Shown one piece after another: positions 847 through 55,550 of a DNA stretch of 64,000 nucleotides. The translations under genes and the position numbers were made by a program. Position 1 is the first letter of the stretch. The number at the start of each line of letters is the position of its first letter. Below the pieces are notes generated by a model. The model ran no database searches and was not told the DNA's origin. It worked only from the letters and a program-made list of their open reading frames with translations. Origin of the DNA: Draconibacterium sp. (GTDB lineage: Bacteria; Bacteroidota; Bacteroidia; Bacteroidales; Prolixibacteraceae); NCBI GenBank assembly GCA_037444065.1, contig JBBINB010000002.1:48642-112641 (forward strand), written 5' to 3'.

Positions 847-2133
847 ATGAAAACTATCAAAAATATCCTTCCACTATTTTTTTTGTTTGTTTTGGGTAAT
901 TCTTGCTTGGACAAGTACACAGAAGTTTTTACAGCATATTCACCAATTTATATGTCGTACGACGATCTGCGGGCAGCTGTAAAAACAACTTCTGCAAACG
1001 AATTGGAAAATCCGGGCAAGATCTACTTTAAAGACGGGTACATTTTTGTGAACGAGGAAATGAAAGGGATTCACATTATCGATAACCGAAACCCGCGTAA
1101 CCCGCAAAACATTAAATTCATCGAAATCCCGGGAAATGTTGATATGGCAATAAAAAACAACATATTATATGCCGACAGCTATATTGATATGGTAGCCATC
1201 GACATTTCCGACATATCCAATCCTCGAGAAGTGCACCGTGTAAAAGATGTTTTTCCGTACATGACCCCGCCGCCTGCAAACGAAGACTACCGGTTGGCCA
1301 TGGTCGATAAAGAAAAAGGGGTGGTTATCGACTGGGAAATTAAAAAAGTAAAACAGGAAATTGAGTATCAGTACTATCCAACCTATTTCAAATTTCGCTC
1401 AGAAATGACAATGGATGCCAACTATAACTCTGCTTCCGGTTCGGGTTCAGCTAATGCTGGCAATTCATTTGGAGTTGGCGGATCGATGGCCAGGTTTGGT
1501 TTATATAACAATTATTTATACGCTGTCGATAATTCAACCTTATATATGTTCGATGTTAAAACTCCTGAAAAACCAACCGGTATTGGCAAACAAAATATTG
1601 GGTGGAACATAGAAACTATGTTTATTTATAACGGCCACATGTTTTTTGGGACACAAACCGGAATGATAATTTACAGCCTGAAAGTTCCAACAGCTTTAAA
1701 TTATATCGGCAATTTCTGGCATGTAACCAGTTGCGACCCGGTAGTTATCGCCGATGGTTATGCGTATATAACATTACGCGGGGGAAACACTTGTGGAGGA
1801 AACACAAACAGGCTTGATGTTTTGAAACTATCCGATGACTTCAAAAAAAATGAACTTCTGGCGTCATACCCTATGGCAGGGCCTTACGGGTTGGGTATCG
1901 ATGACCAAATCCTATTTATTTGCGATGGTGAGGCAGGTTTGAAAGTATATAATGTGGAAGATAAACTCCATATCGACGATCATCAAATTGCAAGGTTTGC
2001 AAATATCAAAACTTATGATGTGATTCCGTTTAAAGGATATTTATTTATGATTGGCGACGATGGATTTTATCAGTACGACTACTCCAACCTTCAAAATATT
2101 CAGCAAATTAGTTTTATCCCTGTAAAAAAATAA
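847..2133 (+). CDS. LVIVD-repeat beta-propeller lipoprotein
   Basis: Repeated motifs GIHIIDNRNPRNP, MVAIDISDISNP, LYMFDVKTPEKP and LKVYNVEDK match the LVIVD repeat pattern. Signal peptide plus Cys (LGNSC). ATG at 847 preferred over the TTG at 841 used by the ORF track. Confidence 0.6.
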   Translation: MKTIKNILPLFFLFVLGNSCLDKYTEVFTAYSPIYMSYDDLRAAVKTTSANELENPGKIYFKDGYIFVNEEMKGIHIIDNRNPRNPQNIKFIEIPGNVDMAIKNNILYADSYIDMVAIDISDISNPREVHRVKDVFPYMTPPPANEDYRLAMVDKEKGVVIDWEIKKVKQEIEYQYYPTYFKFRSEMTMDANYNSASGSGSANAGNSFGVGGSMARFGLYNNYLYAVDNSTLYMFDVKTPEKPTGIGKQNIGWNIETMFIYNGHMFFGTQTGMIIYSLKVPTALNYIGNFWHVTSCDPVVIADGYAYITLRGGNTCGGNTNRLDVLKLSDDFKKNELLASYPMAGPYGLGIDDQILFICDGEAGLKVYNVEDKLHIDDHQIARFANIKTYDVIPFKGYLFMIGDDGFYQYDYSNLQNIQQISFIPVKK

Positions 2134-2786
2134 TTCTAACCCTTCTAATGGAACTTTATTCGAACGTAATTTCAATAAAATGGTGAATAAACTATTTTAC
2201 TTGCATTCTTGCATCACTGAATGCCATTTCAAACAACATTAACAAAGATAAAATGGCAATTATAAGTACCGTGCTGTTTTAAAAGTTGTACAGAATATTG
2301 CTTTCAAAATATCATAAAATTAAAGGAAAAACTGTTTAAGCAGTTACTTCCTATTCGGCTAACTATCTGTATTACTGCATTTTTAGCTATTTAAAACAGA
2401 AAACATAAAAAATAATAACAATTTTTGATAATGTTCAAAAATTTATTTATGTTTGCCTTTAGCTTTTTGAAATACATTTCTAGGACGCATTTTAATAACT
2501 ATTTGAGTAATTGGAACCTATTTTAGGTAGAATTGTGTTTGTCGTACATTGATTTAATTAATGAAGTTCGGATTATAAAAGATAAAAGTATCATTTCTAA
2601 ACGTGCTGCTTTTCTCTTTGCAAAAATCCTGTAAACAAACTGTCTGAAATATAAGTTCCGCTTTACGTATGATTTGACAATAACAATTTCTTGTTATTGA
2701 GGGCGCTAAGTATCGGTTATTTAGCTAAGATGCGTATGCGAAATTGAAAAAATGGACATAAATAAATTTTTATAATACCATTAATT

Positions 2787-3134
2787 ATGAATTCAAATTT
2801 TGCACACAGCGAATCGGCAATATCGTTAAAACGAATCATTCAGAAGGAACATTCTGACGAAGACAAAATCAGGATTGTTATTGAAGGTATATTTGGCGAT
2901 ATTTCAGTTAAACAAATTTGCGAAAAAGAGGGAATTAATACAGACTTGTTTTACGAATGGAGTAAATATTTTATGGAAACAAATTACATCAGATTTACAA
3001 GCGACGCGAAAAGTAGAGCATCCTTAATTAACGTTGACCAATTAAAAAGTCAAAATATGTTTTTGAGAAGGTTGGTTGCCGACTTGAGCCGCGAAAACAA
3101 TTTACTGAAGAATAAATTGAATAAAGCCTGTTAA
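2787..3134 (+). CDS. Orphan IS3-family OrfA-like HTH protein (Transposase_8-like), no OrfB
   Basis: EDKIRIVIEGIFGDISVKQICEKEGINTDLFYEWSKYF followed by a leucine-zipper-like tail (LKSQNMFLRRLVADLSRENNLLKNKL) resembles IS3/IS911 OrfA. No DDE OrfB, frameshift site or IRs follow. Confidence 0.5.
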   Translation: MNSNFAHSESAISLKRIIQKEHSDEDKIRIVIEGIFGDISVKQICEKEGINTDLFYEWSKYFMETNYIRFTSDAKSRASLINVDQLKSQNMFLRRLVADLSRENNLLKNKLNKAC

Positions 3135-3410
3135 CCAGTTACTAACCAGTTTAGGCTAACGATTTAATTTGTTAACAGTTATTTTGGTTTATTGGGCTAA
3201 TAAACAGATTTACAATTTATTACGGCATATTTTAACAACCTGCTCATTTAATATATCGGAACATAAGAAAAGAGATAGAACTGGGCCTTTTATTTTGATA
3301 AAAAAAGTATGGCGCCTGGTTTAAACTAAAAGCTTTTGGAAGAAAAGGAATTCCGGAAGATTTTTAACAAAATCGAAATGGAAAATATGTATTAACTTAA
3401 TAAAATCCCA

Positions 3411-3890
3411 ATGAAAGCTGGCACAGATAATCAAGTTTTGTATTCTGCATCTAAAACAGAAATTTTTTGTGAAGAACAAAATAAAATAGAGTTGTTAAGT
3501 TGTCCGAATGGTAAAACCACCTGTAAAGAGCTTTTGCTGGTTATTAATAAAAACTTTGTGATAGCCCATCAGGCTTTTATCGATAAGGATTTTAACCGTT
3601 CGATTGATTTGTTAAAAAACACCTATTACAAAACGGCTGAATTAACCGATGCTCAGTGCCAAAAATGTGCAAACCTTTTTCGTTCAACTATTAATGACTC
3701 TTTAAAAGACATTCACATCGATTTGAATAAAATGGCCTCAGGCCTTTTTGGAAAAAAAAGCTATAGGCCCATTTGCAACAAAGCCCTGAATGTTTTAACT
3801 GAATTTGACAAAGCAAAAATAAATGGTTCCCTGCAAAAAGAGAGATTTAATACTACATACATAAAATCGCCTTTAAGAAAAGTGAGCTGA
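3411..3890 (+). CDS. Hypothetical protein (Cys-containing, no recognised family)
   Basis: 159-aa ORF in an AT-rich islet. Only the ORF length and its isolation support it. Confidence 0.3.
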   Translation: MKAGTDNQVLYSASKTEIFCEEQNKIELLSCPNGKTTCKELLLVINKNFVIAHQAFIDKDFNRSIDLLKNTYYKTAELTDAQCQKCANLFRSTINDSLKDIHIDLNKMASGLFGKKSYRPICNKALNVLTEFDKAKINGSLQKERFNTTYIKSPLRKVS

Positions 3891-4190
3891 CTGGCATCAC
3901 CGGACAAATCAAATGAATTAAAAAAGAAATCAATTTCAAGGTATTACAGATAAACCAAAATTAAGTAAATCTGAAGGGCAGTTATTTGGAAACTACTTAA
4001 ATAAAGGAATTAGTTTTGTTTGGAAAGAACAAAATTAAAAGCCTGGCAAACTGCCGGGCTTTTTCTTTGTTATCAAATAGGTAAAAATGTATTTTTGCCA
4101 AAACAAATTAAACTGGTTTTACAGCTTTCAAACCGTATTAATTTGAATAAAAGGGGTAAGCCCCATAATAATTTGAAAAGGAGTAATTAT

Positions 4191-18530: not shown

Positions 18531-18869
18531 TTATTCATCCAGCAGACCAGTTACTTCTACTTTTAATTTTGGCAAATGATTTAATACAATACTCCATATC
18601 AAATCATCCGATATACTGTCATATCCGTGAATTATCCTGTTTCGGGTTCCGACAATTTTCTCAGCATTGTCAAGTTTAAAATTTTTGTCCTTTTTAAGTA
18701 TCCTGTTTACAGCCCCTCCTATAATTTCCAAATTTCGTTCAACTGCTCTTCTGGTTTTAATATCAGAAGTATATTCCCCAAAAATCCTTGGCTTGTTCTC
18801 AAAGTAGCTATCAATTTCGTTTATCGACTGTAAAATATCAAAAAGCCAGGTCTTTATGTCATTATCCAT
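18531..18869 (-). CDS. hepT: HepT-like (DUF86) ribonuclease toxin, type VII TA
   Basis: 112 aa with RNRIIHGY, which matches the Rx4HxY active-site motif. 8-bp overlap with the upstream nucleotidyltransferase gene. Confidence 0.85.
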   Translation of the reverse strand: MDNDIKTWLFDILQSINEIDSYFENKPRIFGEYTSDIKTRRAVERNLEIIGGAVNRILKKDKNFKLDNAEKIVGTRNRIIHGYDSISDDLIWSIVLNHLPKLKVEVTGLLDE

Positions 18870-19161
18870 AAATCAAAAGTTTAGAAGAGTCAATCGATTT
18901 TCTTAAATATGGATTTTTAATCGCCTTATTTTCAAGCAAATCAACTTGTCGCTCCAGCAATTTCTCTAATGAGGTTTTTAAGTCAAAATAATTGTCAGCA
19001 TAGTAGAATAGATCAACTCCGGAGAAGTCAACCAATAAATCGATGTCACTTGACTTATTAAAATCATCTGTCAGGATTGAACCAAACACAAATAGCCTCG
19101 CAACCCGATGTTTATTACATAATGCCCTTATTGTATCAATATTTTTATCAATAATCCTCAT
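18862..19161 (-). CDS. mntA: MntA-like minimal nucleotidyltransferase antitoxin
   Basis: 99 aa with FGSILTDDFNKSSDIDLLV, which matches GSx10DxD. Confidence 0.85.
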   Translation of the reverse strand: MRIIDKNIDTIRALCNKHRVARLFVFGSILTDDFNKSSDIDLLVDFSGVDLFYYADNYFDLKTSLEKLLERQVDLLENKAIKNPYLRKSIDSSKLLIYG

Positions 19162-20916: not shown

Positions 20917-22227
20917 ATGAAGGTTTCATTAGCATTACTTTCTGTTTTTGTTTTTATTTTTCTGTTTACGAATTGCAACGGGCAAGCCACAAAACAAGCC
21001 AGGGTGAGGCTTCCTGCTGTATCCGGTTCTTTTTATCCGGCTAATGCACAGGAATTAAAAGCACAAATTGCCTCATTTTTCGATAGGATACTGGACAAAA
21101 AAACCGACCCAGATATTGCAGCTGTTATCGTACCGCATGCAGGCTACATTTTTTCAGGAGAGGTTGCCGCGACAGCGTATGCCAGGCTGGATCCTGACAA
21201 AACCTGGGAACATATATTTCTCATTGGGTCGAGCCATTATGAATCACTAAACGGCGCTTCGATTTATAACCTTGGCGATTTTCAAACACCGTTGGGTGTG
21301 GTTAAAGTCGATACGCACCTGGCTAACAAACTGATTAACGGGCACAAAGTTTTTAAATCAGTACCCTCAAGCCACGAACGCGAACACAGCCTCGAAGTCC
21401 AGCTCCCATTCCTGCAGTACCGGTTAAATAAACCTTTTAAAATTGTACCTGTCATTATTGGAACACAATCGGCCGAAACCTGCAAAAATATTGCCGATGC
21501 GTTAAAGCCGTATTTCAACAGCCAAAATCTTTTTATAATCAGTACCGATTTTTCGCATTACCCGGCTTATGCCGATGCCGTAAAATACGACAGAATTACA
21601 GGTGATGCCATTGCCTCCAATAACCCCGCCCTTTTTGTAAATACCCTTTTGCAAAACGACAAAAAGGGAATTACCGGGCTTGCCACCAGTTGCTGCGGGT
21701 GGAGTTCGGTGCTCACATTCCTGAATATTACATCCAATGTACCAGGCGTAAAAATCGAACATGTAAAATACATGAATTCAGGCGATACTTCTTATGGAGA
21801 TAAAAACAGGGTTGTGGGCTATCATTCGTTTATTATCACTATCGGAAATAAGGAAACAACAGGCTTTAACCTTTCACAACCTGACGGGCAATTGCTGCTA
21901 AGAACCGCTCGCGATGCAATAGAAACACGGTTGAAGAATAAGCCGCTTCCAGTTTATTCCGGGCCGCAATTAACTAAAGACATAAAAATTCCCTGCGGGG
22001 CTTTTGTAACCCTTGCCAAAACCGGGATTTACATTATAAAAGGAACCCAAAGCGGTACTTTTCTGCCAATAGTTGCCCGCGAAACCGGGTGGAATACAGA
22101 AGAACTGCTGGGGCATTGTGCCCGCGACAAAGCCGGCATTGGATGGGACGGTTGGAAACATGCCGACCTGTACACTTTTGAGGCGTTGGAATTCAATGAA
22201 AAGGAAACCATAAATTCGGGAAGATGA
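20917..22227 (+). CDS. AmmeMemoRadiSam protein B (Memo-like) fused to a shortened AMMECR1-like (protein A) domain; lipoprotein signal
   Basis: Memo motifs VPHAGYIFSG, HSLEVQLPFL, STDFSHY and MNSGD. C-terminus LLLRTARDAIE...CGAFVTL...GTFLPIVARETGW...CARDKAG matches the AMMECR1 ends. N-terminus MKVSLALLSVFVFIFLFTNC. Confidence 0.8.
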   Translation: MKVSLALLSVFVFIFLFTNCNGQATKQARVRLPAVSGSFYPANAQELKAQIASFFDRILDKKTDPDIAAVIVPHAGYIFSGEVAATAYARLDPDKTWEHIFLIGSSHYESLNGASIYNLGDFQTPLGVVKVDTHLANKLINGHKVFKSVPSSHEREHSLEVQLPFLQYRLNKPFKIVPVIIGTQSAETCKNIADALKPYFNSQNLFIISTDFSHYPAYADAVKYDRITGDAIASNNPALFVNTLLQNDKKGITGLATSCCGWSSVLTFLNITSNVPGVKIEHVKYMNSGDTSYGDKNRVVGYHSFIITIGNKETTGFNLSQPDGQLLLRTARDAIETRLKNKPLPVYSGPQLTKDIKIPCGAFVTLAKTGIYIIKGTQSGTFLPIVARETGWNTEELLGHCARDKAGIGWDGWKHADLYTFEALEFNEKETINSGR

Positions 22228-24722
22228 ACGCTGCCTATCCGCTGTTTCCTGTTACAATTATAGTTTTTGGAGCTTGGTTTGCTACCTGGCTTTTTTCGAG
22301 CTGGGACATTTTCAAAGAAAAAACACACCTGAAATTCTGGAATTATATACTTCTTGTAGTTTTTCTGATAACAGGATTATTAGGTTTGTTTAGTGTGGTT
22401 AAGGTAAACTACAAACTTGTAATCCCGAATTACGAATTGTATTTGCAATGGCATGTGTCGTTTGGGATAGCAATGGTTTTTGTATCGTTTTTTCATCTTT
22501 CGTACCACCTGAAATATTTTTTTGGATTCAGGAAAAAAAAGCCAAAGAATGAAAGTTCCGGTAATGCCAAATTGCCATCGGATACTCCTCAAAATGCGGC
22601 GCTAATGCTTTTTTTGCTTGGTTTTGCAACCATAATCACGCAGGTTGTATTTATCCGCGAATTTATAACCGTACTTTCTGGAAACGAGCTGGTTACGGGC
22701 CTGGTGTTATCTGGTTGGATGATTCTTACAGGCTGGGGAGCTTTCACAGGGCGAAATGGCGATTTTACTGCTTTGTCTTCCCAGAGAGGAATTTTAATGT
22801 TGTCGGCGCTTACAATAATTGCCACAGTGATGACCGGTACGCTGTACGGCTTAAAATCGCTGCTGTTCCCTCCCGGAACGCTTACCGGTTTGGGAGCCTC
22901 TTCAGTTGCCGTATTTTTACTTTTGTTCCCGGTTTGTTTCCTTTCGGGATGGCTTTTTACCGGCCTTGCTTCGGTATGGTCCAATTCAGAAAATGTGAAC
23001 CTTTCCGGCAGGTCGTATGCAGTCGAAGCGCTGGGAAGCCTCGCCGGAGGTGCAATTTTCAGCCTGGCGCTGGGCAGGTTTTTTACTTCTTTCCAGATAT
23101 TAGCCATCACAGGTTCTCTCATTCTGCTCGCAGGAGCATGGTTTTTAAAACCCGGAAACCGGAAAACAAATTTCTCCTTCTTACTGGCCGCAATTCTTTA
23201 TTCATTTCTCGTTTTTTCGTTCAATCCCGACAAGATTATAAAAAAAATGTTATTCCCTAACCAGGAACTGATCTTGAGCAAAAGTACCCGTTACGGAAAT
23301 CTTGTCGTTACAGAACAGGCCGGCCAACTGAATGTGTATGAAAATAACGACCTCCTTTTTTACACACATAATGTAATGATGAACGAAGAGGCTGTTCATT
23401 TTGCGATGGTTCAGCACGATAATCCAAAAAGTGTTTTACTGGTTTCGGGCGGGATTTCGGGTATGATTAACGAAATTGAAAAATATAAAGTTGAAAAAAT
23501 TACCTATCTCGAAGTAAATCCCGAAATATTTTCATCGCTTGAAAATTATGCCGATTCACTTGATAAATCAGGAAGAGTGAAAACAGTCAGGACAGATATC
23601 CGGTCTTTTATCGGGAAAACGGACGAGAAATTCGATGTGGTTTTGATTAATCTCCCGCCACCTTCAACCCTCGGAATGAACCGCTTTTACACTATCGAGT
23701 TTTTTGAAATGGTTAAAAAGCGTTGTACAAAAAACGCGGTAATTTGTACAGGGCTTCCATCAACAGCCAATTATGCCGAGGAAAACGCCCTTGCAGTAAA
23801 TTCTTCGCTTTGGAAAACACTGGGCGCCTGTTTCAAAAACCAGTTGGTTTTAACCGGAGAGAGAAATTATTTTCTTGCTTCCGACGCCATGCTATTCCCG
23901 GATATAACCGTAAGGATTTTACAAAAAGAAATTGAAACCATTTATGTAAACCGGTTTTATATTGACGATGCGCTGCTGGCAATGCGCAGCGGGTCGCTTA
24001 CAGCGGGTTTTGTAGCCGAAACCCCCCTGAACCGCGATTTCAAACCATTTATGTTTGTGAAACAGATTGGCCACTGGTTAAGTCATTTTGGTGGTAATTT
24101 CAAGTGGTTCGTTTTAATTCCCCTGGTTTTGTTCGTAATGTTCCATTTAAAGCTAAACCGCATTACAATTGGATTATATACCGGCGGGTTCACATCAGCA
24201 TCACTCGAAGTTGTCCTGTTACTGGTTTGGCAGGTTTGGTTTGGAAGCATTTATCTGGCTTCGGCCCTGTTTTTCGCTGTTTTTATGGCCGGGCTTGCTT
24301 ATGGCAGTTCGCAAAAATTCGGGTTAAAGGGCCCGTTAATCAAACGATATTATTTATTGCAATTCGGCCTGGCAGCTTTTGCTTTATTGTTGCCATTTGT
24401 ACTGCGGTATACCGGAGATTGGGCAGCGTGGAAATTCCCGGTTCAAATGCTTCTGTTTGTTCTGGTTTTTGTATTGTCAACAGGTGTAGGGCATGAGTTT
24501 TTACTGGCGACAAAACTTCTGAAAACAAATTTTTCAGAAACGGCTGGCAGCAGTTACAGCATCGACCTTTTAGGCTCGGCATTTGGCGCTTTTATAGCAA
24601 CCATAGTGCTTTTGCCTTTACTTGGATTAAAAAACACCTGCCTGGTTGTTGCCGTATTGAACATGGTTAGTGGTTTGTTCGCCTTCTCTGCCAGGAAAAC
24701 CCTTCTTAATACATTTTCGTAA
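22224..24722 (+). CDS. Polytopic membrane protein with central spermidine-synthase-like (class I MTase fold) domain
   Basis: 832 aa, many hydrophobic helices on both sides. Central VLLVSGGISGMINEI...YLEVNPEI...FDVVLINLPPPSTLGMNRFYTIEFF resembles the SpeE fold ('fused MFS/spermidine synthase' type). ATGA overlap with the upstream gene. Confidence 0.75.
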   Translation: MNAAYPLFPVTIIVFGAWFATWLFSSWDIFKEKTHLKFWNYILLVVFLITGLLGLFSVVKVNYKLVIPNYELYLQWHVSFGIAMVFVSFFHLSYHLKYFFGFRKKKPKNESSGNAKLPSDTPQNAALMLFLLGFATIITQVVFIREFITVLSGNELVTGLVLSGWMILTGWGAFTGRNGDFTALSSQRGILMLSALTIIATVMTGTLYGLKSLLFPPGTLTGLGASSVAVFLLLFPVCFLSGWLFTGLASVWSNSENVNLSGRSYAVEALGSLAGGAIFSLALGRFFTSFQILAITGSLILLAGAWFLKPGNRKTNFSFLLAAILYSFLVFSFNPDKIIKKMLFPNQELILSKSTRYGNLVVTEQAGQLNVYENNDLLFYTHNVMMNEEAVHFAMVQHDNPKSVLLVSGGISGMINEIEKYKVEKITYLEVNPEIFSSLENYADSLDKSGRVKTVRTDIRSFIGKTDEKFDVVLINLPPPSTLGMNRFYTIEFFEMVKKRCTKNAVICTGLPSTANYAEENALAVNSSLWKTLGACFKNQLVLTGERNYFLASDAMLFPDITVRILQKEIETIYVNRFYIDDALLAMRSGSLTAGFVAETPLNRDFKPFMFVKQIGHWLSHFGGNFKWFVLIPLVLFVMFHLKLNRITIGLYTGGFTSASLEVVLLLVWQVWFGSIYLASALFFAVFMAGLAYGSSQKFGLKGPLIKRYYLLQFGLAAFALLLPFVLRYTGDWAAWKFPVQMLLFVLVFVLSTGVGHEFLLATKLLKTNFSETAGSSYSIDLLGSAFGAFIATIVLLPLLGLKNTCLVVAVLNMVSGLFAFSARKTLLNTFS

Positions 24723-24756
24723 CGAATTGTATATTTCGACAGGTAAATTTAAATGC

Positions 24757-25881
24757 ATGGAAAAAAGACAGTTTTTTAAAACAGCTTTTTGGGGAGCGGG
24801 AGGATTTTATTTTTGCAACCCGCTTTCTGCTGCATATACGGCCGGTGTTACTCACGAAGTTGGAAAGAAATGGACAAAAGAAGCGCTTTTTTATACCGAA
24901 ACACCCAAGGGGATCAGGTGCCTGATTTGTCCGAACGAATGCGATATTAAAGAGGGAGAGGCAGGCGACTGTAGAAACCGCGTGAACAAAAACGGGAAAC
25001 TCTGGTCGATAGCTTATGGTAACCCTTGTGCAATCCATGTCGACCCAATTGAAAAAAAACCGTTGAACCATTTTCTTCCCGGAAGTAAAGCTTTTTCAAT
25101 AGCCACTGCAGGCTGTAACCTTGCCTGCCTGAACTGCCAGAACTGGACCATTTCGCAAAAAAGCCCGAACGAAACAAAAAACTTCGACCTGATGCCCGAC
25201 AAAGTGGTTGATAGCTGCATAAAAAACAACTGTGAGTCAATTGCATACACCTATTCCGAACCTATAACATTTTATGAATATACCTACGACACCTCTGTTC
25301 TTGCCCGTCAGGCGGGTATTAAAAATGTGCTTGTTTCGGCAGGTTACATCAACCGCGAACCTCTTTTAAAACTTTGCAAAATAACCGATGCGGCCAATAT
25401 CGACCTGAAATCGTTCAGCGATGAGATTTACCTGAAATTAAACGCCGGAAAACTTCAACCCGTTCTTGATACATTGATAACCATGAAAAAGGAAGGCGTT
25501 TGGCTCGAAATTACAAACCTGGTTGTTCCATCGTGGACAGACAACCTTGAAATGATAAAAAAAATGTGCGGATGGCTGGCCCGGAACGGGTTGGATGAAG
25601 CGCCCCTGCATTTCAGCCGTTTTATGCCCTTTCACAAACTTACCCTGTTGCCGCCAACGCCTGTAAATATTTTGCAGAGCGCTCGTGAAACAGCTCTCAG
25701 TGAAGGTTTGAAATATGTATATATTGGAAATGTGCCGGGTATAGGGACCGAAAATACAACCTGCCCAAAATGCAAGAAAAATGTGGTTGAACGCCGGGGA
25801 TACTCCATCCTTAAAAATAACCTTAACGATGGAAAATGCAACTCCTGCTATGCCAAAATCGCCGGGGTGTGGCATTTGTAA
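24757..25881 (+). CDS. AmmeMemoRadiSam-type radical SAM enzyme (PflA-like) with Tat-like N-terminus
   Basis: CNLACLNCQNW is the CxxxCxxC motif. Upstream CLICPNECDIKEGEAGDC is an auxiliary Cys cluster. Start set at MEKRQFFKTAFWGAGG (24757) rather than 24670, which overlaps the previous gene. Confidence 0.85.
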   Translation: MEKRQFFKTAFWGAGGFYFCNPLSAAYTAGVTHEVGKKWTKEALFYTETPKGIRCLICPNECDIKEGEAGDCRNRVNKNGKLWSIAYGNPCAIHVDPIEKKPLNHFLPGSKAFSIATAGCNLACLNCQNWTISQKSPNETKNFDLMPDKVVDSCIKNNCESIAYTYSEPITFYEYTYDTSVLARQAGIKNVLVSAGYINREPLLKLCKITDAANIDLKSFSDEIYLKLNAGKLQPVLDTLITMKKEGVWLEITNLVVPSWTDNLEMIKKMCGWLARNGLDEAPLHFSRFMPFHKLTLLPPTPVNILQSARETALSEGLKYVYIGNVPGIGTENTTCPKCKKNVVERRGYSILKNNLNDGKCNSCYAKIAGVWHL

Positions 25882-25974: not shown

Positions 25975-28890
25975 ATGCATCCCGATTTCGATCATTTAAA
26001 GTCGCAGCTCGATGGCGATGTTTTTACCGACAACGTTCAGCGAGTGTTATATTCCACCGATGCGTCACAATACAGAGAATTGCCACTGGCGGTTACGCGC
26101 CCGAAGTCGGGCGAGGACATTAAAAAAATCATTGCTTTTGCCCGGGAAAACGGAACTTCAGTTATTCCGCGCGGAGCCGGAACTTCGCTGGCAGGCCAGG
26201 TTGTCGGGCCCGGAATCGTGGTTGATGTTTCAAAATACATGAACCAAATACTCGAATTCAATTTGGAGGAAAAATTTGTGATTGTTGAACCCGGCGTTAT
26301 ACTGGCTGAGCTAAACCTGTTCCTTGCAAAACACGGGTTGCAGTTTGGCCCCGAAACTTCAACGGCCAACCGCTGTGTAATCGGCGGGATGCTTGGCAAC
26401 AATTCCTGCGGGCTGCATTCGTTGGTTTATGGTAGCGTGCGCGAACATATTCTCGAAGTGGATGCCATTCTTTCCGATGGTTCTGAAACCACTTTCAAAG
26501 CGCTTTCAAAAGATGAGTTTCTGCAAAAATTGAATGGCAATCCCAACCTGTTGGAAAAAGCCATTTACCTGAATATTTACGAAACACTTTCCAACCCTGA
26601 AAACCAAAAGGAAATCCGGGAACAATTCCCCGAGCCCAAACTTACCCGCCGGAACATGGGATATGCCATCGACGAGTTGTTAAATTCTGAAATGTTTACT
26701 GAAGGTGGGCCTGCTTTTAATTTCTGCAAACTGCTGGCCGGTTCAGAAGGGACACTGGCATTTTCGCACCGGATTAAACTGAATGTAATCCCGCTCCCGC
26801 CCAAATTTAAAGGATTGGTTTGTGCCCATTTCGAAACGCTTGAAGAATCGATTCTCGGAAACCTTATCGCGTTGAAACATAAACCCACTGCCATAGAATT
26901 AATGGACGACCCGGTTATGCAGGCAGCCAAACAAAATATAGAACAAAACAAAAACCGGTTTTTTGTAAAAGGTGATCCCGGTGCGCTGCTGATGATTGAG
27001 TTTTCGTTTGAAACCGAAAAAGAGTTAACCGATACAGCGGCAGCCCTCGAAAAAGATTTCAGGAATGCTGGTTTAGGATATCATTTCCCGCTGGTTACAG
27101 GCGCCGACAACATCAAACGTGTTTGGGCGCTCAGAACTGCAGGCCTGGGTTTGCTTGCCAACATCCCCGGCGACAGGAAAGGCGTTCCCGGGATTGAAGA
27201 CACGGCAGTAAATCCCGAATACCTGCCCGATTATGTTGCCGATATCAAAAAAGTACTTGCCAAACTCGGTCTGAACAGCATTTTTTATGCACACATTGCC
27301 ACCGGGGAAATACATTTCAGGCCACTCATCAATTTTAAAGATCCCGAAGACGTAAAGCTTTTCGAAACGTTAATGAATGAAGTTGCGTTGCTGGTAAAAA
27401 AATACCGTGGCTCTATGAGCGGCGAACATGGCGATGGCCGCGTACGCGGAAAGTTTATCCCTTTTATGTTGGGGGAACACAATTTCCAACTACTTAAAGA
27501 ATTGAAAAAAACCTGGGATCCCGATAATATTTTCAATCCCGGTAAAATAATGGACTCGCCCTCAATTACTGAAAGTTTGCGGGTGATCCCGGGAATTCCG
27601 TCCCCTGAATTTAAAACCGAAATGAATTTTTCGCGTTACCGGGGATATTTCAGAAGCATTGAAAAATGCAACGGTTCGGGCGATTGCCTTAAAAGCGAAA
27701 TAATAGGCGGAACCATGTGCCCCACTTTTATGGCCACACGCGACGAAGATAAAAGCACACGCGGACGCGCCAATATTTTGCGCGAATTCCTGAGTTCAGG
27801 GAAAAACGAAAATCCTTTCAGCCGGCAGGAGATTTATGATATTCTCGATTTGTGCATATCATGTAAAGCCTGTAAAGCCGAGTGCCCGTCGAATGTTGAC
27901 ATGGCTAAACTTAAAGCCGAATTCCTTCAGCAATATTACGATGTTCAAGGCACCCCGCTCCGCTCAAAACTGGTTGCCTACCTTCCGCGTTTGAACAGCC
28001 TGGCAGTGTTGGCCAGGCCTCTGTCGAATTTTTTGATGAATACTTCAATACTCAAAAATGCAATCGGTTTTTCAACCAAACGAACCGTTCCAAAACTTTC
28101 GAAACTTACCCTGAACCGTTGGGTAGGCAACGGAATTCCTTTGCCCGAAAAGGAACCAAAAGGGAAGGTTTACCTGTTTAACGATGAGTTTACCAATTAC
28201 AACGAAAGCGAAATTGGAATAAAAGCAATTTTACTGCTTACAAAGCTGGGGTACGAAGTAAAAATACCCATCCACAAGGAAAGTGGCAGAACCTTCCTTT
28301 CGAAGGGCCTGGTGCGGGGCGCAAAAAAAATTGCAACAGAGAATGTCGATCTTTTAAAAGAACTAATTTCGGAACAAACCCCGCTGGTAGGAATCGAACC
28401 CTCGGCAATCCTTGCCTTCCGCGATGAATACCCCGAATTAGTTGACAACGATTTGCAACCTGTTGCAGAAAAGTTGGGAAAAAACGCGCTTCTGTTTGAA
28501 GAGTTCTTTTCGGCGGAAATCGATAAGGGAAATATCACTCCGGAACAATTTACAGCGGAAGAAAAGCAAATCCTGCTGCATGGCCACTGCCAGCAAAAAG
28601 CTGTAGCCAGCACCGTCCCCACAAAGAAAATGCTTTCGCTGCCCGTAAATTATTCGGTTAAAGAAATCCCCTCGGGATGCTGTGGTATGGCCGGCTCGTT
28701 TGGATACGAAAAAGAACATTATGATTTATCGATGAAAATAGGCGAAATGGTTCTATTTCCGGCTATTCGAAGTGCTGAAGAAAAAATAATTATTTCGGCC
28801 CCGGGAACTTCGTGCCGCCACCACATAAAAGACGGAACAGGGAAAAAAGCTAAACACCCGGTGGAAGTGCTGTATGATGCCCTGAAATAA
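25975..28890 (+). CDS. FAD-binding plus (Fe-S)-binding fused oxidoreductase (YdiJ / D-2-hydroxyacid dehydrogenase-like)
   Basis: 971 aa. N-terminal FAD_binding_4 (RGAGTSLAGQ), GEHGDGRVRG, central CxxCxxCxxxCP (CISCKACKAECP) and C-terminal CCG-type Cys-rich domains (CCGMAGSFG). Confidence 0.85.
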   Translation: MHPDFDHLKSQLDGDVFTDNVQRVLYSTDASQYRELPLAVTRPKSGEDIKKIIAFARENGTSVIPRGAGTSLAGQVVGPGIVVDVSKYMNQILEFNLEEKFVIVEPGVILAELNLFLAKHGLQFGPETSTANRCVIGGMLGNNSCGLHSLVYGSVREHILEVDAILSDGSETTFKALSKDEFLQKLNGNPNLLEKAIYLNIYETLSNPENQKEIREQFPEPKLTRRNMGYAIDELLNSEMFTEGGPAFNFCKLLAGSEGTLAFSHRIKLNVIPLPPKFKGLVCAHFETLEESILGNLIALKHKPTAIELMDDPVMQAAKQNIEQNKNRFFVKGDPGALLMIEFSFETEKELTDTAAALEKDFRNAGLGYHFPLVTGADNIKRVWALRTAGLGLLANIPGDRKGVPGIEDTAVNPEYLPDYVADIKKVLAKLGLNSIFYAHIATGEIHFRPLINFKDPEDVKLFETLMNEVALLVKKYRGSMSGEHGDGRVRGKFIPFMLGEHNFQLLKELKKTWDPDNIFNPGKIMDSPSITESLRVIPGIPSPEFKTEMNFSRYRGYFRSIEKCNGSGDCLKSEIIGGTMCPTFMATRDEDKSTRGRANILREFLSSGKNENPFSRQEIYDILDLCISCKACKAECPSNVDMAKLKAEFLQQYYDVQGTPLRSKLVAYLPRLNSLAVLARPLSNFLMNTSILKNAIGFSTKRTVPKLSKLTLNRWVGNGIPLPEKEPKGKVYLFNDEFTNYNESEIGIKAILLLTKLGYEVKIPIHKESGRTFLSKGLVRGAKKIATENVDLLKELISEQTPLVGIEPSAILAFRDEYPELVDNDLQPVAEKLGKNALLFEEFFSAEIDKGNITPEQFTAEEKQILLHGHCQQKAVASTVPTKKMLSLPVNYSVKEIPSGCCGMAGSFGYEKEHYDLSMKIGEMVLFPAIRSAEEKIIISAPGTSCRHHIKDGTGKKAKHPVEVLYDALK

Positions 28891-29431
28891 GAATTTGTAC
28901 TTAGAGAAATCGAATTGAAAAATTCACCACTTTCCTGAATGTTTTTTCAATTTTTCTTTTTAAGCTACACTATTACAGCTTATTAAGTTCAACCAAATTG
29001 AAATCTATCCTATTCAATTAAAATATTTAAATATTTAAAGGTATTTTTATTTGTTTATTAATTTCAGATGTTGTAACTTTTCCTCAATAATTATAAATGA
29101 TTAACGTTTTTCAAAACTTTAAAATTTATAAACATAATTTATCGACTTACAATAAATTAAAACTTATACTAAAAATTTCCCGCAACAAATATTTATGAAT
29201 AATTTCAGGTTTACCTATTTCAACACTTCATAGTTACAATCACTTTAATTTTCTGGGCGGAAATTATATTAACCTGCAAGGCTATTCCTTCCGCTACTTA
29301 ACTTAAACTTATTCAAACAGTTAGCTTTGAGTATAGGAATGCTATGTTTAATAGGAAAATCGTTTATTCCACAGAAAAATCGTTTTACAAACTTTCAAAA
29401 ATTCAATATTAACTTTACAATTTTAAAAATT

Positions 29432-32400
29432 ATGAAAAAAATCTACACTTCAGTTGCCAACTGGCTTATCCATTTTATCCCGTTGGTTTATCAAAAAAAG
29501 AGATATTATCCTCTTTTTGTTGGTATTTTGTTTTGTTCCTTTTTACTTTCTTCAAACCAGGCAGATGCTTCTCATTTTAGGTATGGAAACGTTAACTATC
29601 GGATTGTTTCCAATACGGCTACAACTACTCTTGTTGAATTTACCATTACAATGAGTTATTATTATGGCCCGGGTTCGCAATTTACACAGTTCGGATCAGT
29701 GCCAATTGGAGGAACTATAAATACCGCTGATAATTTTAACTTTGGAAATGGTAGCGTATCAAATTTGTCGTATATAGTTACGTCAAAAAACAATACCGAA
29801 AACTGGCTTGTAGCCTCCAGAACTTTACAGCGTACATATACCTCATTGTCAGACTTTACCGCTATTCTAACAGGAATTGCAAGGGTAGGAAGTTTACAAC
29901 CTCCAAATAGTAGTACAAATTTGCAATACATTATAAGAACAATTGTTGCATTGACAAATCCTAGCAATCAACCGCCTTCTGCCAGTACACCGCCCATATT
30001 TTATGTACCAGTAAACCAGGCAGCTTTTAACATTCAAATTAATGCTTCCGATCCGGAAGGATTTCCTTTGGCCTATGCATGGGCGCCTGGTGGTGCAACA
30101 GGTTCGGGCTTGAATAGTCAGGTTCTTACGATAAATGGACCTGCCACATTAAATGCCTCAACAGGTCAGATAACATTAAATACTCAAGGTACTGCAGTTG
30201 GCAACCAGTATGCGGCACAGGTTTGGATTCGAGACAATTTAGGCGCGCGGGTTGCGGTTGACTTTATTGTTCAAACAGTTACCCAGTCCAATCCGCCGGT
30301 TTTTGATTATGCCAGCGGCTTTACTCCAGCAAATGGCTCTGTTATAAAATTTCAGCCGGGCCAGACAGTTAACTTTAACGTAAAGGCTTCAGATATGGAT
30401 GCAGGTAGCTCTGTTACGCTTTCAGCAATTGGGGTTCCGGTAGGGTCAACATTGTCGCCATCAAACAACGTTGGTAATCCAATCCTGCAAAATTTTAATT
30501 GGGTTACTTCAATGGCAAATCTGGGTTCTCGTACGATCACTTTTTCAGCCGTTGATAATTTCTTTTCGCAAACCACGACAAGTGTAACAATTGTAGTAAC
30601 ACTTGCCCCGGTTTTTGACGTACCACCCACCCCGGCTACGGGAACTCATATTGTTGCCGCACCGGGTACACCCATTTCTTTTATGGTGCAGGCACAAGAT
30701 CCCGATCCAAACGATATTTGCCGGATAATTGAAATTAACGGGAAAGACATGAGCGGGAAAATACCAATTTATGCGGGAGCAACAACTACACCCGGATTAC
30801 CAACAACGGCTGGCAATACTACTTCGCTTCAATTTAACTGGACGCCTGTTGCTTCCCAATGGGGACACCGTCATGTAATTTTTACTGCAGAAGATGGCTA
30901 TAATGATAAAACAGATCATGAAATACCGATCCTTGTTAACACAGTTCCAAACTTTACTTCTACTCCGGTGACAGATGTCTTTACAAATAAATTATATTCA
31001 TATGACATTACTGTTTACGATCCGGATGTACTTCAGGGTGATGTGATACAGATATTAGGCCAGGCGATTCCGGCGTGGCTAACTTTAACAGATAACGGCG
31101 ATGGAACGGCAACCTTGTCAGGTACCCCTGCATTAGGTGATGCAGGATTGGTAAACATCAAACTAATCGCTGAAGACCTTTACCATCACGAAAGTCCGGT
31201 TCCAACACAGGAATTTGCGATTACAGTTATCCCATGCGATTTTAGTATTTCGGGCACATTATCTGATGTTTCCTGTTTCGGTGGCAGTGATGGTTCTATT
31301 GATTTAACTTTAAACGGGGTTTACGGAACACCTTCGTTTACATGGACAGGCCCTGATAATTTCAGCGCATCAACAGAAGACCTTACCGGATTGGCAGCAG
31401 GCACTTACAATGTTTTAGTTACAAGTGATTTAGGTTGCTCAGAAACTACAAGTTTTGAAGTTGGGACAATCCCTGACGTTGCACCGCCCGATATTTTCTG
31501 TCCGGATAATATGAATGTAAATAATGATCCGGGAGATTGCGGAGCAGTGGTGAATTTTAGTGTTTCTGCATCGGATAACTGCCCGGGTGTAACGGTTGTA
31601 AGTTCACCTGCCAGCGGAAGTGTTTTCCAAATTGGAACAACTACCATAACATCAGTTGCAACCGATGCTGCCGGAAATACGGCCACCTGTAGTTTTACTG
31701 TTACAGTTAAGGATACCGAGGCGCCAACAATTGCATGCCCTGCGAATATTTTGGTTAACAACGACCCGGGAAATTGCGGAGCAGTGGTCAATTTTAGTGT
31801 TTCTGCATCGGATAACTGCCCGGGTGTAACGGTTGTAAGTTCACCGGCCAGCGGAAGTGTTTTCCAAATTGGAACAACTAACGTAACATCAGTTGCAACC
31901 GATGCTGCCGGAAATACGGCCACCTGTAGTTTTACTGTTACAGTAAATAACACTCTTCCGGTTATTAACAGTGTAACCGGCCCGGTTACCCCAACTGCAC
32001 TCGGTAATTCAATTACCATAGAAGTGCAACATAACAACGATAATAACTTAACAAAAGCTACTATTGACTGGGACGATCAAACTGCGGTTCAGAATATTTC
32101 CAATCCTGCATCAGGTTCATTCAATGTAACACATACTTATGCCACTCCTGGTGTATATACGGTAAGCGTAACCTTGACCGACGCATGTGGCGCAGTTTCT
32201 GAAACGTTTAATTATCAGTATATTGTTATTTATGATCCGAGCGGTGGTTTTGTAACCGGAGGTGGATGGTTCTGGTCTGAAGCATGCGCAATAAAGGATG
32301 GAAGTGGAGCTACCGGAAAAGCCAACTTTGGTTTTGTTGCCAAGTATAAAAAGGGGTCCACGGTTCCCGATGGAAATACTGAATTCCAGTTCAAGGCCGG

Positions 32401-33004
32401 AGCAATCAATTTCCACAGCACAGCATACGAGGATATGCGCCTGGTAATTTCAGGAGCAAGGGCAAACTATAAAGGTGTTGGAAGTATTCAGGGTTCAAAC
32501 CATGTTTTTGGATTTTTGGTATCGGCAATTGATGGCCAGGTAAGCGGAGGAGGCGGTATTGATAAATTCCGTATAAAAATTTGGGATAAGGATGATGGAA
32601 ACCGCGTTATTTACGACAACAATTGCACCGAAACCGATGAAAATGCCGACCCTGCCACTGCTATTGGAGGAGGATCAATTGTGATTCACTCAACCAAAAC
32701 CAAATCTGCCGAAATTGAAACAGCAATTGAGCCTGAACCTGTATTCTCCGGATTAAAAGCATATCCAAATCCTTTCCACGAAAAGCTGTATTTTGAATTT
32801 AGCAAGGAGAAAGATTCAAAGGCAACACTTATTCTGTTTGATGGGACTGGCAGGGAAATTGAAGTTTTGTTCAACCAACAGATTAAGGCAAATCAAAACT
32901 ACAGGATTGAATATGTTCCTAATAATGTGGCTACTAATATGGTTTTTTACCGTATGACCTATGATAATGAAGTGATTAACGGAAAATTAATTTACAGAAA
33001 ATAA
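29432..33004 (+). CDS. Large T9SS-secreted adhesin-like protein (Ig-like/cadherin-like, SprB repeat, 2x HYR, PKD, T9SS CTD)
   Basis: He_PIG-like Ig domain (PNFTSTPVTD...LSGTP); SprB-type repeat (VSCFGGSDGSIDLT...GTYNVLVTSDLGC); two HYR domains (CP.N..VNNDPG.CGAVVNF...TATCSFTVTV); PKD (HTYATPGVYTVSVTLTD); C-terminal LKAYPNPFHEKLYFEF... Start at MKKIYT (29432). Confidence 0.8.
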   Translation: MKKIYTSVANWLIHFIPLVYQKKRYYPLFVGILFCSFLLSSNQADASHFRYGNVNYRIVSNTATTTLVEFTITMSYYYGPGSQFTQFGSVPIGGTINTADNFNFGNGSVSNLSYIVTSKNNTENWLVASRTLQRTYTSLSDFTAILTGIARVGSLQPPNSSTNLQYIIRTIVALTNPSNQPPSASTPPIFYVPVNQAAFNIQINASDPEGFPLAYAWAPGGATGSGLNSQVLTINGPATLNASTGQITLNTQGTAVGNQYAAQVWIRDNLGARVAVDFIVQTVTQSNPPVFDYASGFTPANGSVIKFQPGQTVNFNVKASDMDAGSSVTLSAIGVPVGSTLSPSNNVGNPILQNFNWVTSMANLGSRTITFSAVDNFFSQTTTSVTIVVTLAPVFDVPPTPATGTHIVAAPGTPISFMVQAQDPDPNDICRIIEINGKDMSGKIPIYAGATTTPGLPTTAGNTTSLQFNWTPVASQWGHRHVIFTAEDGYNDKTDHEIPILVNTVPNFTSTPVTDVFTNKLYSYDITVYDPDVLQGDVIQILGQAIPAWLTLTDNGDGTATLSGTPALGDAGLVNIKLIAEDLYHHESPVPTQEFAITVIPCDFSISGTLSDVSCFGGSDGSIDLTLNGVYGTPSFTWTGPDNFSASTEDLTGLAAGTYNVLVTSDLGCSETTSFEVGTIPDVAPPDIFCPDNMNVNNDPGDCGAVVNFSVSASDNCPGVTVVSSPASGSVFQIGTTTITSVATDAAGNTATCSFTVTVKDTEAPTIACPANILVNNDPGNCGAVVNFSVSASDNCPGVTVVSSPASGSVFQIGTTNVTSVATDAAGNTATCSFTVTVNNTLPVINSVTGPVTPTALGNSITIEVQHNNDNNLTKATIDWDDQTAVQNISNPASGSFNVTHTYATPGVYTVSVTLTDACGAVSETFNYQYIVIYDPSGGFVTGGGWFWSEACAIKDGSGATGKANFGFVAKYKKGSTVPDGNTEFQFKAGAINFHSTAYEDMRLVISGARANYKGVGSIQGSNHVFGFLVSAIDGQVSGGGGIDKFRIKIWDKDDGNRVIYDNNCTETDENADPATAIGGGSIVIHSTKTKSAEIETAIEPEPVFSGLKAYPNPFHEKLYFEFSKEKDSKATLILFDGTGREIEVLFNQQIKANQNYRIEYVPNNVATNMVFYRMTYDNEVINGKLIYRK
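31536..31944 (+). repeat. Intragenic tandem duplication of an HYR-domain segment (172 bp x2, 237-bp period)
   Basis: 31536-31707 vs 31773-31944 differ at 4 of 172 positions. The offset of 237 bp equals 79 codons, so the frame is kept. Confidence 0.9.
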
Positions 33005-54028: not shown

Positions 54029-54345
54029 TACGCATTCATAAAAAAATTATTGGTATTTAAATTTGCGACAAAATAAACTATTTTTTCCGAAAAAAGGGGA
54101 AAGAATTTTTAAAAGGACCCGCTAAAGACCAATAATTTCCGATACATAACTTATAATTTTAAATGAAAAAAACGGTTGTGGCTTTTTTATTTGCAGCCTG
54201 TCGTTGCGGATCCCGTTTAATATTTCACGATGGGCATTTCATAAAAAAATGCTTATTTTGCTTCTTTATTGTATCTTTTAGTTTTGATTATATTTTAAGT
54301 TTTCAATAAAAAGTACTTAACAAACAATTTCAAGATTTTATTAAA

Positions 54346-55539: not shown

Positions 55540-55550
55540 ATTAAAATTCA

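Follow-up and report, generated by a model that had tools for sequence, protein, structure and literature searches.

Why does a gene for a polytopic membrane protein with a spermidine-synthase-like domain lie between two genes of an AmmeMemoRadiSam system? The arrangement was seen in a 64,000-nt stretch of a Draconibacterium sp. genome (assembly GCA_037444065.1, contig JBBINB010000002.1, positions 48,642 to 112,641 of the forward strand), hereafter called the window. Memo and AMMECR1 proteins occur from archaea to humans and are tied to human disease, and the biochemical role of both and of their radical S-adenosylmethionine (SAM) partner is still a puzzle. We hypothesize that the locus encodes an envelope-located (extracytoplasmic) variant of the system, in which the membrane protein, here named SpeTM, would be a dedicated membrane subunit enabling SAM chemistry at the outer face of the membrane. 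We consider this hypothesis evenly poised between right and wrong. Already known are the AmmeMemoRadiSam triad, whose function is still unassigned, its PflA-like radical SAM partner and Memo-AMMECR1 fusions (PMC2034487). The triad (TIGR04335/TIGR04336/TIGR04337) corresponds to what Burroughs et al. 2019, as cited in PMC7159879, call 'Memo-Ammecr1 systems'.

The locus consists of three co-directional open reading frames (ORFs) on the + strand (20917–22227, 22224–24722 and 24670 or 24757 to 25881), tightly packed as the initial annotation of the window had listed them. The overlap of the second start codon with the first stop codon (ATGA at 22224–22227; spacing −4 nt) and the strings quoted from the second (VLLVSGGISG, DVVLINLPPP) and third (CNLACLNC) proteins are all present in the sequence. 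Since homologues of the radical SAM enzyme align from the methionine at ATG 24757, this is its most likely start (374 aa), not GTG 24670, and the membrane gene is therefore followed by a 34-nt gap, not an overlap. A promoter and terminator scan detected no intergenic terminator between the locus genes. Sigma-70-like sites were found at chance level (11 versus 11.5 expected), this consensus being ill-suited to Bacteroidota promoters, and TAnnTTTG motifs lie 134–333 nt upstream of the first gene.

Domains were assigned with Pfam and NCBIfam profile searches, reading scores against curated cutoffs, and the identity of the triad was upheld. The first protein matched Memo (PF01875, E = 2e-61, residues 33–305; TIGR04336, 249.7 bits, cutoff 26). 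Its AMMECR1 part was matched only over model positions 109–166 of 168, and it fell below the TIGR04335 cutoff (43.4 bits, cutoff 99) because of an internal deletion described below. The second protein (832 aa) matched Spermine_synth (PF01564, 62.8 bits, cutoff 22.9). The third scored well above the cutoff of TIGR04337 (351.6 bits, cutoff 220) and below that of the PflA model TIGR02493 (53.1 bits, cutoff 231.75). It is thus a radical SAM enzyme related to PflA, as annotated, but its family membership is TIGR04337.

The arrangement is not peculiar to this genome. A genome scan with an alignment of SpeTM homologues yielded 80 near loci, whose neighbouring genes were identified with tblastn and phmmer; they span Prolixibacteraceae, other Bacteroidales, Ignavibacteriota and metagenome-assembled genomes labelled Chitinophaga. 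A Memo-AMMECR1 gene was located upstream of the SpeTM gene in 68 of 74 assessable loci and a radical SAM gene downstream in 68 of 73. Where both sides could be assessed (69 loci), the order Memo-AMMECR1, SpeTM, radical SAM was found in 58, which decisively establishes recurrence in relatives; six loci lacked the Memo-AMMECR1 gene and five the radical SAM gene. The modal upstream spacing was a 4-nt overlap, as in the window. To describe the membrane gene as 'interrupting' the triad is therefore misleading, as it is a conserved member of a cluster variant and not an insertion.

A distant survey covered 80 metagenomic loci, reached via radical SAM enzymes with RR-type leaders (queries with 43–55% identity to a protein whose own identity to the window enzyme is 48%) and searched with hidden Markov models (HMMs) built from the alignments of this study. 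A gene of the TM7–SpeE–TM7 type, i.e. with a SpeE-like domain between two bundles of seven transmembrane (TM) helices (700–850 aa), was present in 34 of these loci, in varied gene orders and on either strand. We argue for a shared function, since the linkage survived rearrangement at such distances. None of six control loci with leaderless radical SAM enzymes contained a SpeTM gene.

SpeTM homologues numbered 480 at E ≤ 1e-5 among the scored candidates, hundreds of them full-length, and those with a name belong to Bacteroidota. An AlphaFold2 (AF2) model of SpeTM, based on a 61-sequence alignment (predicted local distance difference test score, pLDDT, 88.5; predicted template modelling score, pTM, 0.89), showed three plus seven TM helices, a mixed alpha/beta domain (residues ~337–622) and seven more TM helices. 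A second model, of residues 1–345, agreed with the first (pLDDT 90.2). The protein is thus polytopic, with 17 predicted TM helices instead of the about 15 annotated initially. The SpeE or class I methyltransferase fold proposed for its central domain was confirmed by the PF01564 match and by Thermus spermidine synthase-type structure 1uir, which was retrieved both by sequence (profile search of the Protein Data Bank, E = 5e-18) and with Foldseek (E = 7e-11; template modelling score, TM-score, 0.66–0.70 normalised to the target). The top 50 Foldseek matches were all SpeE-type enzymes, with target-normalised TM-scores of 0.60–0.70 and coverage of the full domain length.

Conservation was assessed in 106 SpeTM homologues (78 near, 28 distant). 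Residues G409, G413, E430, D458, D471, P478, P480, N486 and R487 were essentially invariant, and an alignment with 1uir identified the first five as the adenosyl-binding positions. The domain thus shares with SpeE (PF01564, TIGR00417; Thermus 1uir, T. maritima 1inl/1jq3) its fold over the whole domain and the residues that bind the adenosyl part, namely the Gly-rich loop, the acidic E430 after beta-2 and the adenine-binding D458. It differs at the three positions which we take to define aminopropyl transfer in SpeE structures: the acid of GGG(D/E)G, which holds the amino group of decarboxylated SAM (dcSAM), the catalytic Asp of DxxDP and the Tyr of YHE. In SpeTM, GGGDG is replaced by SGGISG (family-wide SGG(I/L/V)SG, position 411 being hydrophobic in 106 of 106 homologues and I411 in the window) and DxxDP by NLPPP, while the Tyr is lost. 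Position 476, an Asn in place of the catalytic Asp, is Asn in 73 of the 78 near and 16 of the 28 distant homologues. The second Asp of DxxDP is Pro, Glu or Gly in the near clade, whereas many distant members have kept Asp or Glu. Invariant residues specific to the family are P478, P480, N486, R487, N603 and P608; compared with SpeE, SpeTM adds the Asn-Arg pair among them, 14 flanking TM helices and a predicted outward position of the domain. The domain has the SpeE fold, is a probable SAM-binder and is maintained by selection.

Because the aminopropyltransferase-specific residues are replaced, SpeTM is, as far as its sequence tells, not a spermidine synthase. The initial annotation had thought a housekeeping role of this kind unlikely, and the family-wide replacement of the dcSAM-binding acid and the catalytic Asp bears this out. 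It had argued from a carboxy(nor)spermidine route encoded at 52622–56687 of the window, which we could substantiate: nspC exceeded its cutoff (510 bits, cutoff 409), a carboxynorspermidine synthase homologue, at 403 bits, fell short of its equivalog cutoff of 800, and an arginine-decarboxylase-like pyridoxal phosphate enzyme is encoded among these genes on the − strand. A spermidine route independent of dcSAM fits SpeTM having another role than spermidine synthesis. Could SpeTM nevertheless be a membrane-bound polyamine aminopropyltransferase of the PRK03612 type that lies between two AmmeMemoRadiSam genes by coincidence? Its best NCBIfam matches are indeed polyamine aminopropyltransferase models, and some sources name its homologues 'spermidine synthase'. 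These scores are far below the curated equivalog cutoffs (NF002956, 126 versus 472 bits; NF002010, 72.5 versus 260; TIGR00417, 68.5 versus 249.55), the catalytic residues are replaced throughout the family, the linkage is kept across phyla and through rearrangements, and the window has its alternative route to spermidine. Coincidental adjacency is thus largely refuted, and we regard it as extremely improbable.

The closest architectural relatives are other membrane-bound SpeE-like families (NF002956/PRK03612 and NF037959, 'fused MFS/spermidine synthase', where MFS stands for major facilitator superfamily), which to our knowledge are catalogued but uncharacterised. They have an N-terminal multi-TM bundle followed by a SpeE-like domain in common with SpeTM, to which they align over residues 129–518 and 157–539, respectively, both below cutoff (NF037959, 32.3 bits, cutoff 40). 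SpeTM adds the second 7-TM bundle, the linkage to AmmeMemoRadiSam genes and, in Bacteroidota, an N-terminal 3-TM module with two His residues.

The membrane part of SpeTM contains near-invariant polar residues (Q140, R145, E146, N154, E155, E268, Q670 and D781 in the 106 homologues). No Pfam family matched either 7-TM bundle (TM7A and TM7B). The bundles resembled each other weakly in their last three helices (hhalign, E = 4e-4, probability 34%), and an internal duplication is not claimed. A fold search with the membrane region returned no significant relative (best E = 0.05). The weak matches were mostly MFS transporters, the best of them at E = 0.5–2 with TM-scores of ~0.3 and none at E ≤ 1e-3. 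This agrees with the sub-threshold match to NF037959, but we do not claim an MFS fold for this part of the protein. The 3-TM module (AF2 helices 7–26, 32–63 and 70–99) is absent from most distant homologues. Its residues H77 and H91 were kept in every near homologue that has the module (67–68 of 78 sequences). The position of the two His residues, 14 residues apart on helix 3, speculatively suggests a heme-type electron conduit; the module matched cytochrome b561/DUF4405 profiles only faintly (E = 0.2–0.7, not significant).

The orientation of SpeTM was deduced from the distribution of Lys and Arg over the AF2-defined loops. On the face opposite the SpeE-like domain, 25.3 such residues were counted versus 8.9 on the domain face, and in distant homologues the counts were 20.2 versus 3.1. 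By the positive-inside rule, the domain is therefore predicted to be extracytoplasmic, with the N-terminus of SpeTM outside and its C-terminus inside the cell.

Both soluble proteins carry N-termini suited to export. Among homologues of the Memo-AMMECR1 protein, 47 of 48 near and all 23 distant ones have a hydrophobic region (h-region) ahead of the Memo core, and 26 of the 48 near homologues have a lipobox-like Cys; a Sec/lipoprotein-type signal and export are predicted. The radical SAM enzyme of the window begins MEKRQFFKTAFWGAGGF..., with the leader E-K-R-Q-F-F-K followed by an h-region. All 65 near homologues showed x-R-x-F-[LI]-K ahead of a Gly/Ala-rich hydrophobic stretch, the residue pair being KR in 60, TR in three, QR in one and RR in one, from which we predict export via twin-arginine translocation (Tat). 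Many distant members have textbook twin-arginine leaders (SRRDFIKK, DRRLFLKY, SRREFLKA), as do enzymes in the metagenomic loci. Such leaders of the S/T-R-R-x-F-L-K type, placed before a cofactor protein, are shared with Tat-exported Fe-S redox enzymes; the differences are that the cargo here would be a radical SAM enzyme and that the near clade uses KR. An exhaustive search of 1.84 billion representatives gave 7155 members of the radical SAM family, and sorting the N-termini of the best 150 resulted in 62 leaderless proteins, 44 with a leader and 43 fusions. When the leaders in the 34 SpeTM-positive distant loci were read manually, ~27 were of the Tat type, three were Sec-like and four were leaderless or uncertain.

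Other lineages combine the radical SAM family with other partners, among them membrane modules. The AmmeMemoRadiSam-type radical SAM domain was found fused to DsbD_2 TM domains, to FMN_bind plus Fer4_5 (NosR/NapH-type), to CBM_11, to a PorZ-like propeller and to a signal peptide with Memo and AMMECR1 (representatives P0123, P0129, P0139, P0144, P0145, P0126, P0128, P0130). Proteins of 900–1150 aa with an N-terminal radical SAM domain form a separate class. In locus L165 (8001–11230), a radical SAM gene with a hydrophobic Sec-like N-terminus is followed by a Memo-AMMECR1 gene and a gene for a stand-alone DsbD_2 membrane protein; the membrane partner may thus differ from lineage to lineage. In many distant loci, a DUF362 gene (PF04015, which shares a Pfam clan with the LarA N-terminal domain) lies directly upstream of a Tat-type radical SAM gene, and its product mostly has an RR leader of its own (L082, L087–L092, L094–L097, L102–L104, L109, L115, L116, L120 and others). 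DUF362 appears to be an additional part of the exported variant; the window has no such gene. As a substitute for the SpeTM gene it was rejected, since Tat-DUF362 genes adjoin radical SAM genes with and without SpeTM. Some leaderless radical SAM enzymes of 324–330 aa (L110, L127, L132, L141; also L146, L148) begin at the first Cys motif, and their Memo-AMMECR1 partners carry signal peptides or anchors. Going by their N-termini, the membrane would separate the two proteins, unless one of them is exported or retained by hitchhiking on the other.

The signal of Memo-AMMECR1, the radical SAM enzyme's Tat-type leader and the outward SpeE-like domain are the reasons why we predict that the whole system is located in the envelope. 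A Tat-exported [4Fe-4S] radical SAM enzyme would require SAM and electrons outside the cytoplasm. Because the exported enzyme would need SAM there and SpeTM is the sole conserved member with a SAM-type site, we propose SpeTM as the enabler of outer-face SAM chemistry. Its TM bundles would form a route by which cytoplasmic SAM gains access to the outer face, where the SpeE-like domain between the two 7-TM bundles would bind SAM and not dcSAM. SpeTM would then either pass SAM on to the radical SAM enzyme or move a SAM-derived group to a shared envelope substrate on which Memo-AMMECR1 and the radical SAM enzyme also act.

The following observations weigh against this hypothesis. The KR pair of the near clade is atypical for Tat leaders. 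Some radical SAM members have Sec-like hydrophobic N-termini (L112, L123, L128, P0384), which could be membrane anchors because Sec export is hard to reconcile with the export of an Fe-S enzyme. Two to four loci have SpeTM together with an apparently leaderless radical SAM enzyme (L127, L148; L083 and L089 uncertain), and eight well-flanked Tat-type loci have no SpeTM gene nearby. We know of no established precedent for SAM outside the cytoplasm, and the membrane region has no significant structural relative. Export, topology, SAM binding and transport are predicted throughout, from sequence rules and structural models. Finally, the conserved site of SpeTM (N476, P478, P480, N486-R487) suits a catalytic transferase as well as a carrier. 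A strict coupling of SpeTM genes to Tat-type leaders was also considered and holds only in part, given the Tat-type loci without SpeTM and the SpeTM loci with other N-termini.

If the hydrophobic N-terminus of the radical SAM enzyme is a membrane anchor, the enzyme would remain in the cytoplasm with only Memo-AMMECR1 outside, and SpeTM would pass a cytoplasmically modified, possibly lipid-linked, intermediate across the membrane. This would account for the Sec-like or anchor-type N-termini (L100, L138 and P0294 in addition to those named above), for the KR motif and for the leaderless 324-aa radical SAM enzymes paired with signal-bearing Memo-AMMECR1 (L110, L127, L132, L141). The topology of NosR would likewise put the radical SAM domain of the FMN_bind and Fer4_5 fusions probably in the cytoplasm. 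The textbook Tat leaders of many members, with S/T-R-R-x-F-L-K, an h-region rich in Gly and Ala and an AxA-like end, are at odds with an anchor, as are the Tat leaders of the adjacent DUF362 proteins and the CBM_11 and PorZ-like propeller fusions, whose signal peptides point outside the cell. We therefore judge an anchored, cytoplasmic enzyme to be decidedly unlikely.

A second possibility, close to the reading of the initial annotation, is that SpeTM is itself the key transferase. It would modify a lipid or other envelope molecule held by the TM bundles, placing a SAM-derived group on one of its amines or hydroxyls, and Memo-AMMECR1 and the radical SAM enzyme would then act further on the product. 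The group could be methyl or, because the carboxylate-excluding acid is lost, 3-amino-3-carboxypropyl. The active-site region is highly conserved and remodelled, with N476-[LV]-P-x-P at the motif IV/DxxDP position, the invariant N486-R487 and the residues N603, D605, P608 and W618. SpeTM also gave a weak match to HemK2/MTQ2 (E = 0.003), its N-L-P-P-P bears a loose resemblance to (D/N)PP(Y/F), a motif of N-methyltransferases, and a head group could be bound by the invariant polar residues within the membrane. Counter to this, the catalytic base and the Tyr of aminopropyltransferases are gone, NLPPP is one residue longer than NPPY with a variable position 479, and no acceptor is identifiable. 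If the predicted topology holds, a transferase would still require SAM at the outer face, so that this possibility overlaps with the enabler role proposed above. We consider it possible but rather doubtful.

The envelope hypothesis can be extended to a complete extracytoplasmic radical SAM pathway. It would comprise the exported radical SAM enzyme and Memo-AMMECR1, a 14-TM (possibly MFS-like) SAM conduit, capture of SAM by the outward SpeE-fold domain and membrane modules that supply electrons. The suppliers would be the His-bearing 3-TM module here, and DsbD_2, NosR-like FMN_bind/Fer4_5 or Tat-DUF362 proteins elsewhere. This full pathway is an unlikely, tentative proposal. If it were true, SpeTM would be the first device for SAM export or presentation, and radical SAM chemistry would take place in the envelope.

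Whether the system is functional in this Draconibacterium genome is a separate question. The initial annotation had described the first gene as Memo with an AMMECR1-like tail; both parts were matched, but the 'tail' is a full domain with an internal in-frame deletion. Compared with all 11 aligned relatives, the window protein has a single 70-aa gap between GAFVTL and AKTGIY, which takes out the LRGC(I/V)G and D(T/Y)RF motifs. The corresponding RGChG and DxR-aromatic motifs are the predicted AMMECR1 active site (Balaji and Aravind, PMC2034487). They were kept, with the AMMECR1 domain, in 11 of 11 relatives, and P0125 and P0130 have a full PF01871 domain. Accordingly, the window protein has 436 aa and its relatives about 500–510 aa. 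In the same alignment, LPQV is conserved among the relatives, and the window protein alone has LPIV in its place. K-x-G flanks the lost segment on both sides in relatives, consistent with a deletion mediated by short repeats. Three contigs, taken from NCBI and Logan assemblies, encode an identical 436-aa protein, so the deletion is recorded in more than this one copy, although these may have reads in common.

Since the predicted active-site region is deleted, the pathway may be impaired or altered in this genome, or AMMECR1 may be dispensable or encoded elsewhere. A non-functional or decaying system would be compatible with any of the family-wide explanations. It would agree with the loss of both motifs, with LPIV and with the recurrence of the same sequence in the NCBI and Logan assemblies, although one set of reads may underlie all three records. 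On the other hand, the deletion leaves the reading frame intact, the AMMECR1 segments that remain are 66–77% identical to relatives, and the Memo domain, SpeTM and the radical SAM enzyme keep all family-invariant residues. Six related loci have no adjacent Memo-AMMECR1 gene, so the other two genes may work without it nearby. Decay in this genome therefore seems to us a possibility on the unlikely side.

Compared with AmmeMemoRadiSam systems as known, the same three families are clustered here and the radical SAM and Memo proteins pass the curated cutoffs. The differences are the predicted export signals on both soluble components and a fourth conserved component of the 7TM–SpeE–7TM type, while the sampled leaderless members lack SpeTM. 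On this sequence evidence, an exported-type version with a dedicated SpeE-like membrane partner would be new. We found no literature on exported AMMECR1 or Memo, on exported radical SAM enzymes or on a SpeE-like membrane partner, though Burroughs et al. 2019, who reportedly extend Memo contexts toward isoprenoid modification, may cover part of this. A conceptual analogue is provided by transmembrane acyltransferases (AT3/TmAT), in which cytoplasmic acyl-CoA reaches an extracytoplasmic acceptor (PMC12423673). The donor proposed here is SAM, and no sequence or fold relationship was detected.

Three handles on the system are gained: a predicted envelope location, a membrane partner with a SAM-type site and, in other lineages, a choice of redox partners in the membrane. 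Should the predicted export be true, it would challenge the confinement of radical SAM and other SAM-dependent chemistry to the cytoplasm and would mean that SAM crosses the membrane by a route so far unrecognised. Cultivable relatives have the intact cluster, i.e. Mangrovibacterium marinum DSM 28823 (L023), M. lignilyticum (L022) and Gaoshiqia sediminis (L019), and genetics and biochemistry are therefore feasible. The positions of the features of the locus are given in Table 1.

Table 1. Features of the SpeTM locus, with positions counted from the first nucleotide of the window.
Feature	Position	Strand	Evidence
Memo-AMMECR1 fusion gene, 436 aa, predicted to be exported, AMMECR1 part internally deleted	20917..22227	+	PF01875, TIGR04336
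Putative signal/lipoprotein-type peptide of Memo-AMMECR1 (begins MKVSLALLSVFVFIFLFTNC...)	20917..20982	+	h-region before Memo core
Memo (LigB-like) domain, residues 33-305	21013..21831	+	PF01875 positions 2-268 of 269
AMMECR1 remnant, deletion junction 22014/22015 (GAFVTL/AKTGIY)	21868..22224	+	Alignment with 11 relatives
SpeTM, 832 aa, polytopic in the membrane, SpeE-fold domain at its centre	22224..24722	+	AF2, homologues
N-terminal 3-TM module, near-invariant H77 and H91 on one helix	22224..22523	+	AF2, conservation
First 7-TM bundle (TM7A), invariant Q140, R145-E146, N154-E155, E268	22584..23222	+	AF2, 106 homologues
SpeE-fold domain, predicted SAM-binding, predicted extracytoplasmic	23232..24089	+	PF01564, 1uir, Foldseek, Lys and Arg counts
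SpeE-like domain, motif SGGISG	23445-23462	+	
SpeE-like domain, residue E430	23511-23513	+	
SpeE-like domain, residue D458	23595-23597	+	
SpeE-like domain, motif NLPPP	23649-23663	+	
SpeE-like domain, pair N486-R487	23679-23684	+	
Second 7-TM bundle (TM7B), invariant Q670, Y778, D781	24099..24689	+	AF2, conservation
AmmeMemoRadiSam radical SAM enzyme, 374 aa	24757..25881	+	TIGR04337
Predicted Tat-type leader of radical SAM enzyme (MEKRQFFKTAFWGAGGFYFCNPLSAAYTAG...)	24757..24870	+	Motif and h-region in homologues
Radical SAM enzyme, CxxxCxxC	25114-25137	+	
Radical SAM enzyme, N-terminal CLICPNEC	24919-24942	+	

Downstream of the locus (25975–28890, + strand), the window encodes a 971-aa YdiJ-like fusion of an FAD-linked oxidase with a 4Fe-4S dicluster and a GlpC-like part, which scored 602 bits against a D-2-hydroxyglutarate dehydrogenase model (cutoff 1350). 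This gene was rejected as a member of the system, as it was absent from 80 of 80 related loci. It is followed at 29327–33004 (+ strand) by the gene for a 1225-aa protein with near-identical repeats (…NNDPG(D/N)CGAVVNFSVSASDNCPGVTVVSSPASGSVFQIGTT…), which looks like a large secreted adhesin-type protein. Upstream, at 18531–19161 (− strand), two small overlapping ORFs have translations resembling a nucleotidyltransferase (MNT-like, ...FGSILTDDFNKSSDIDLLVDF...) and a HEPN/DUF86-like protein (...RNRIIHGY...), and look like a HepT/MntA-type toxin-antitoxin pair. The G+C content at positions 2001–4000 is 0.30, and about 0.38–0.46 elsewhere in the window.

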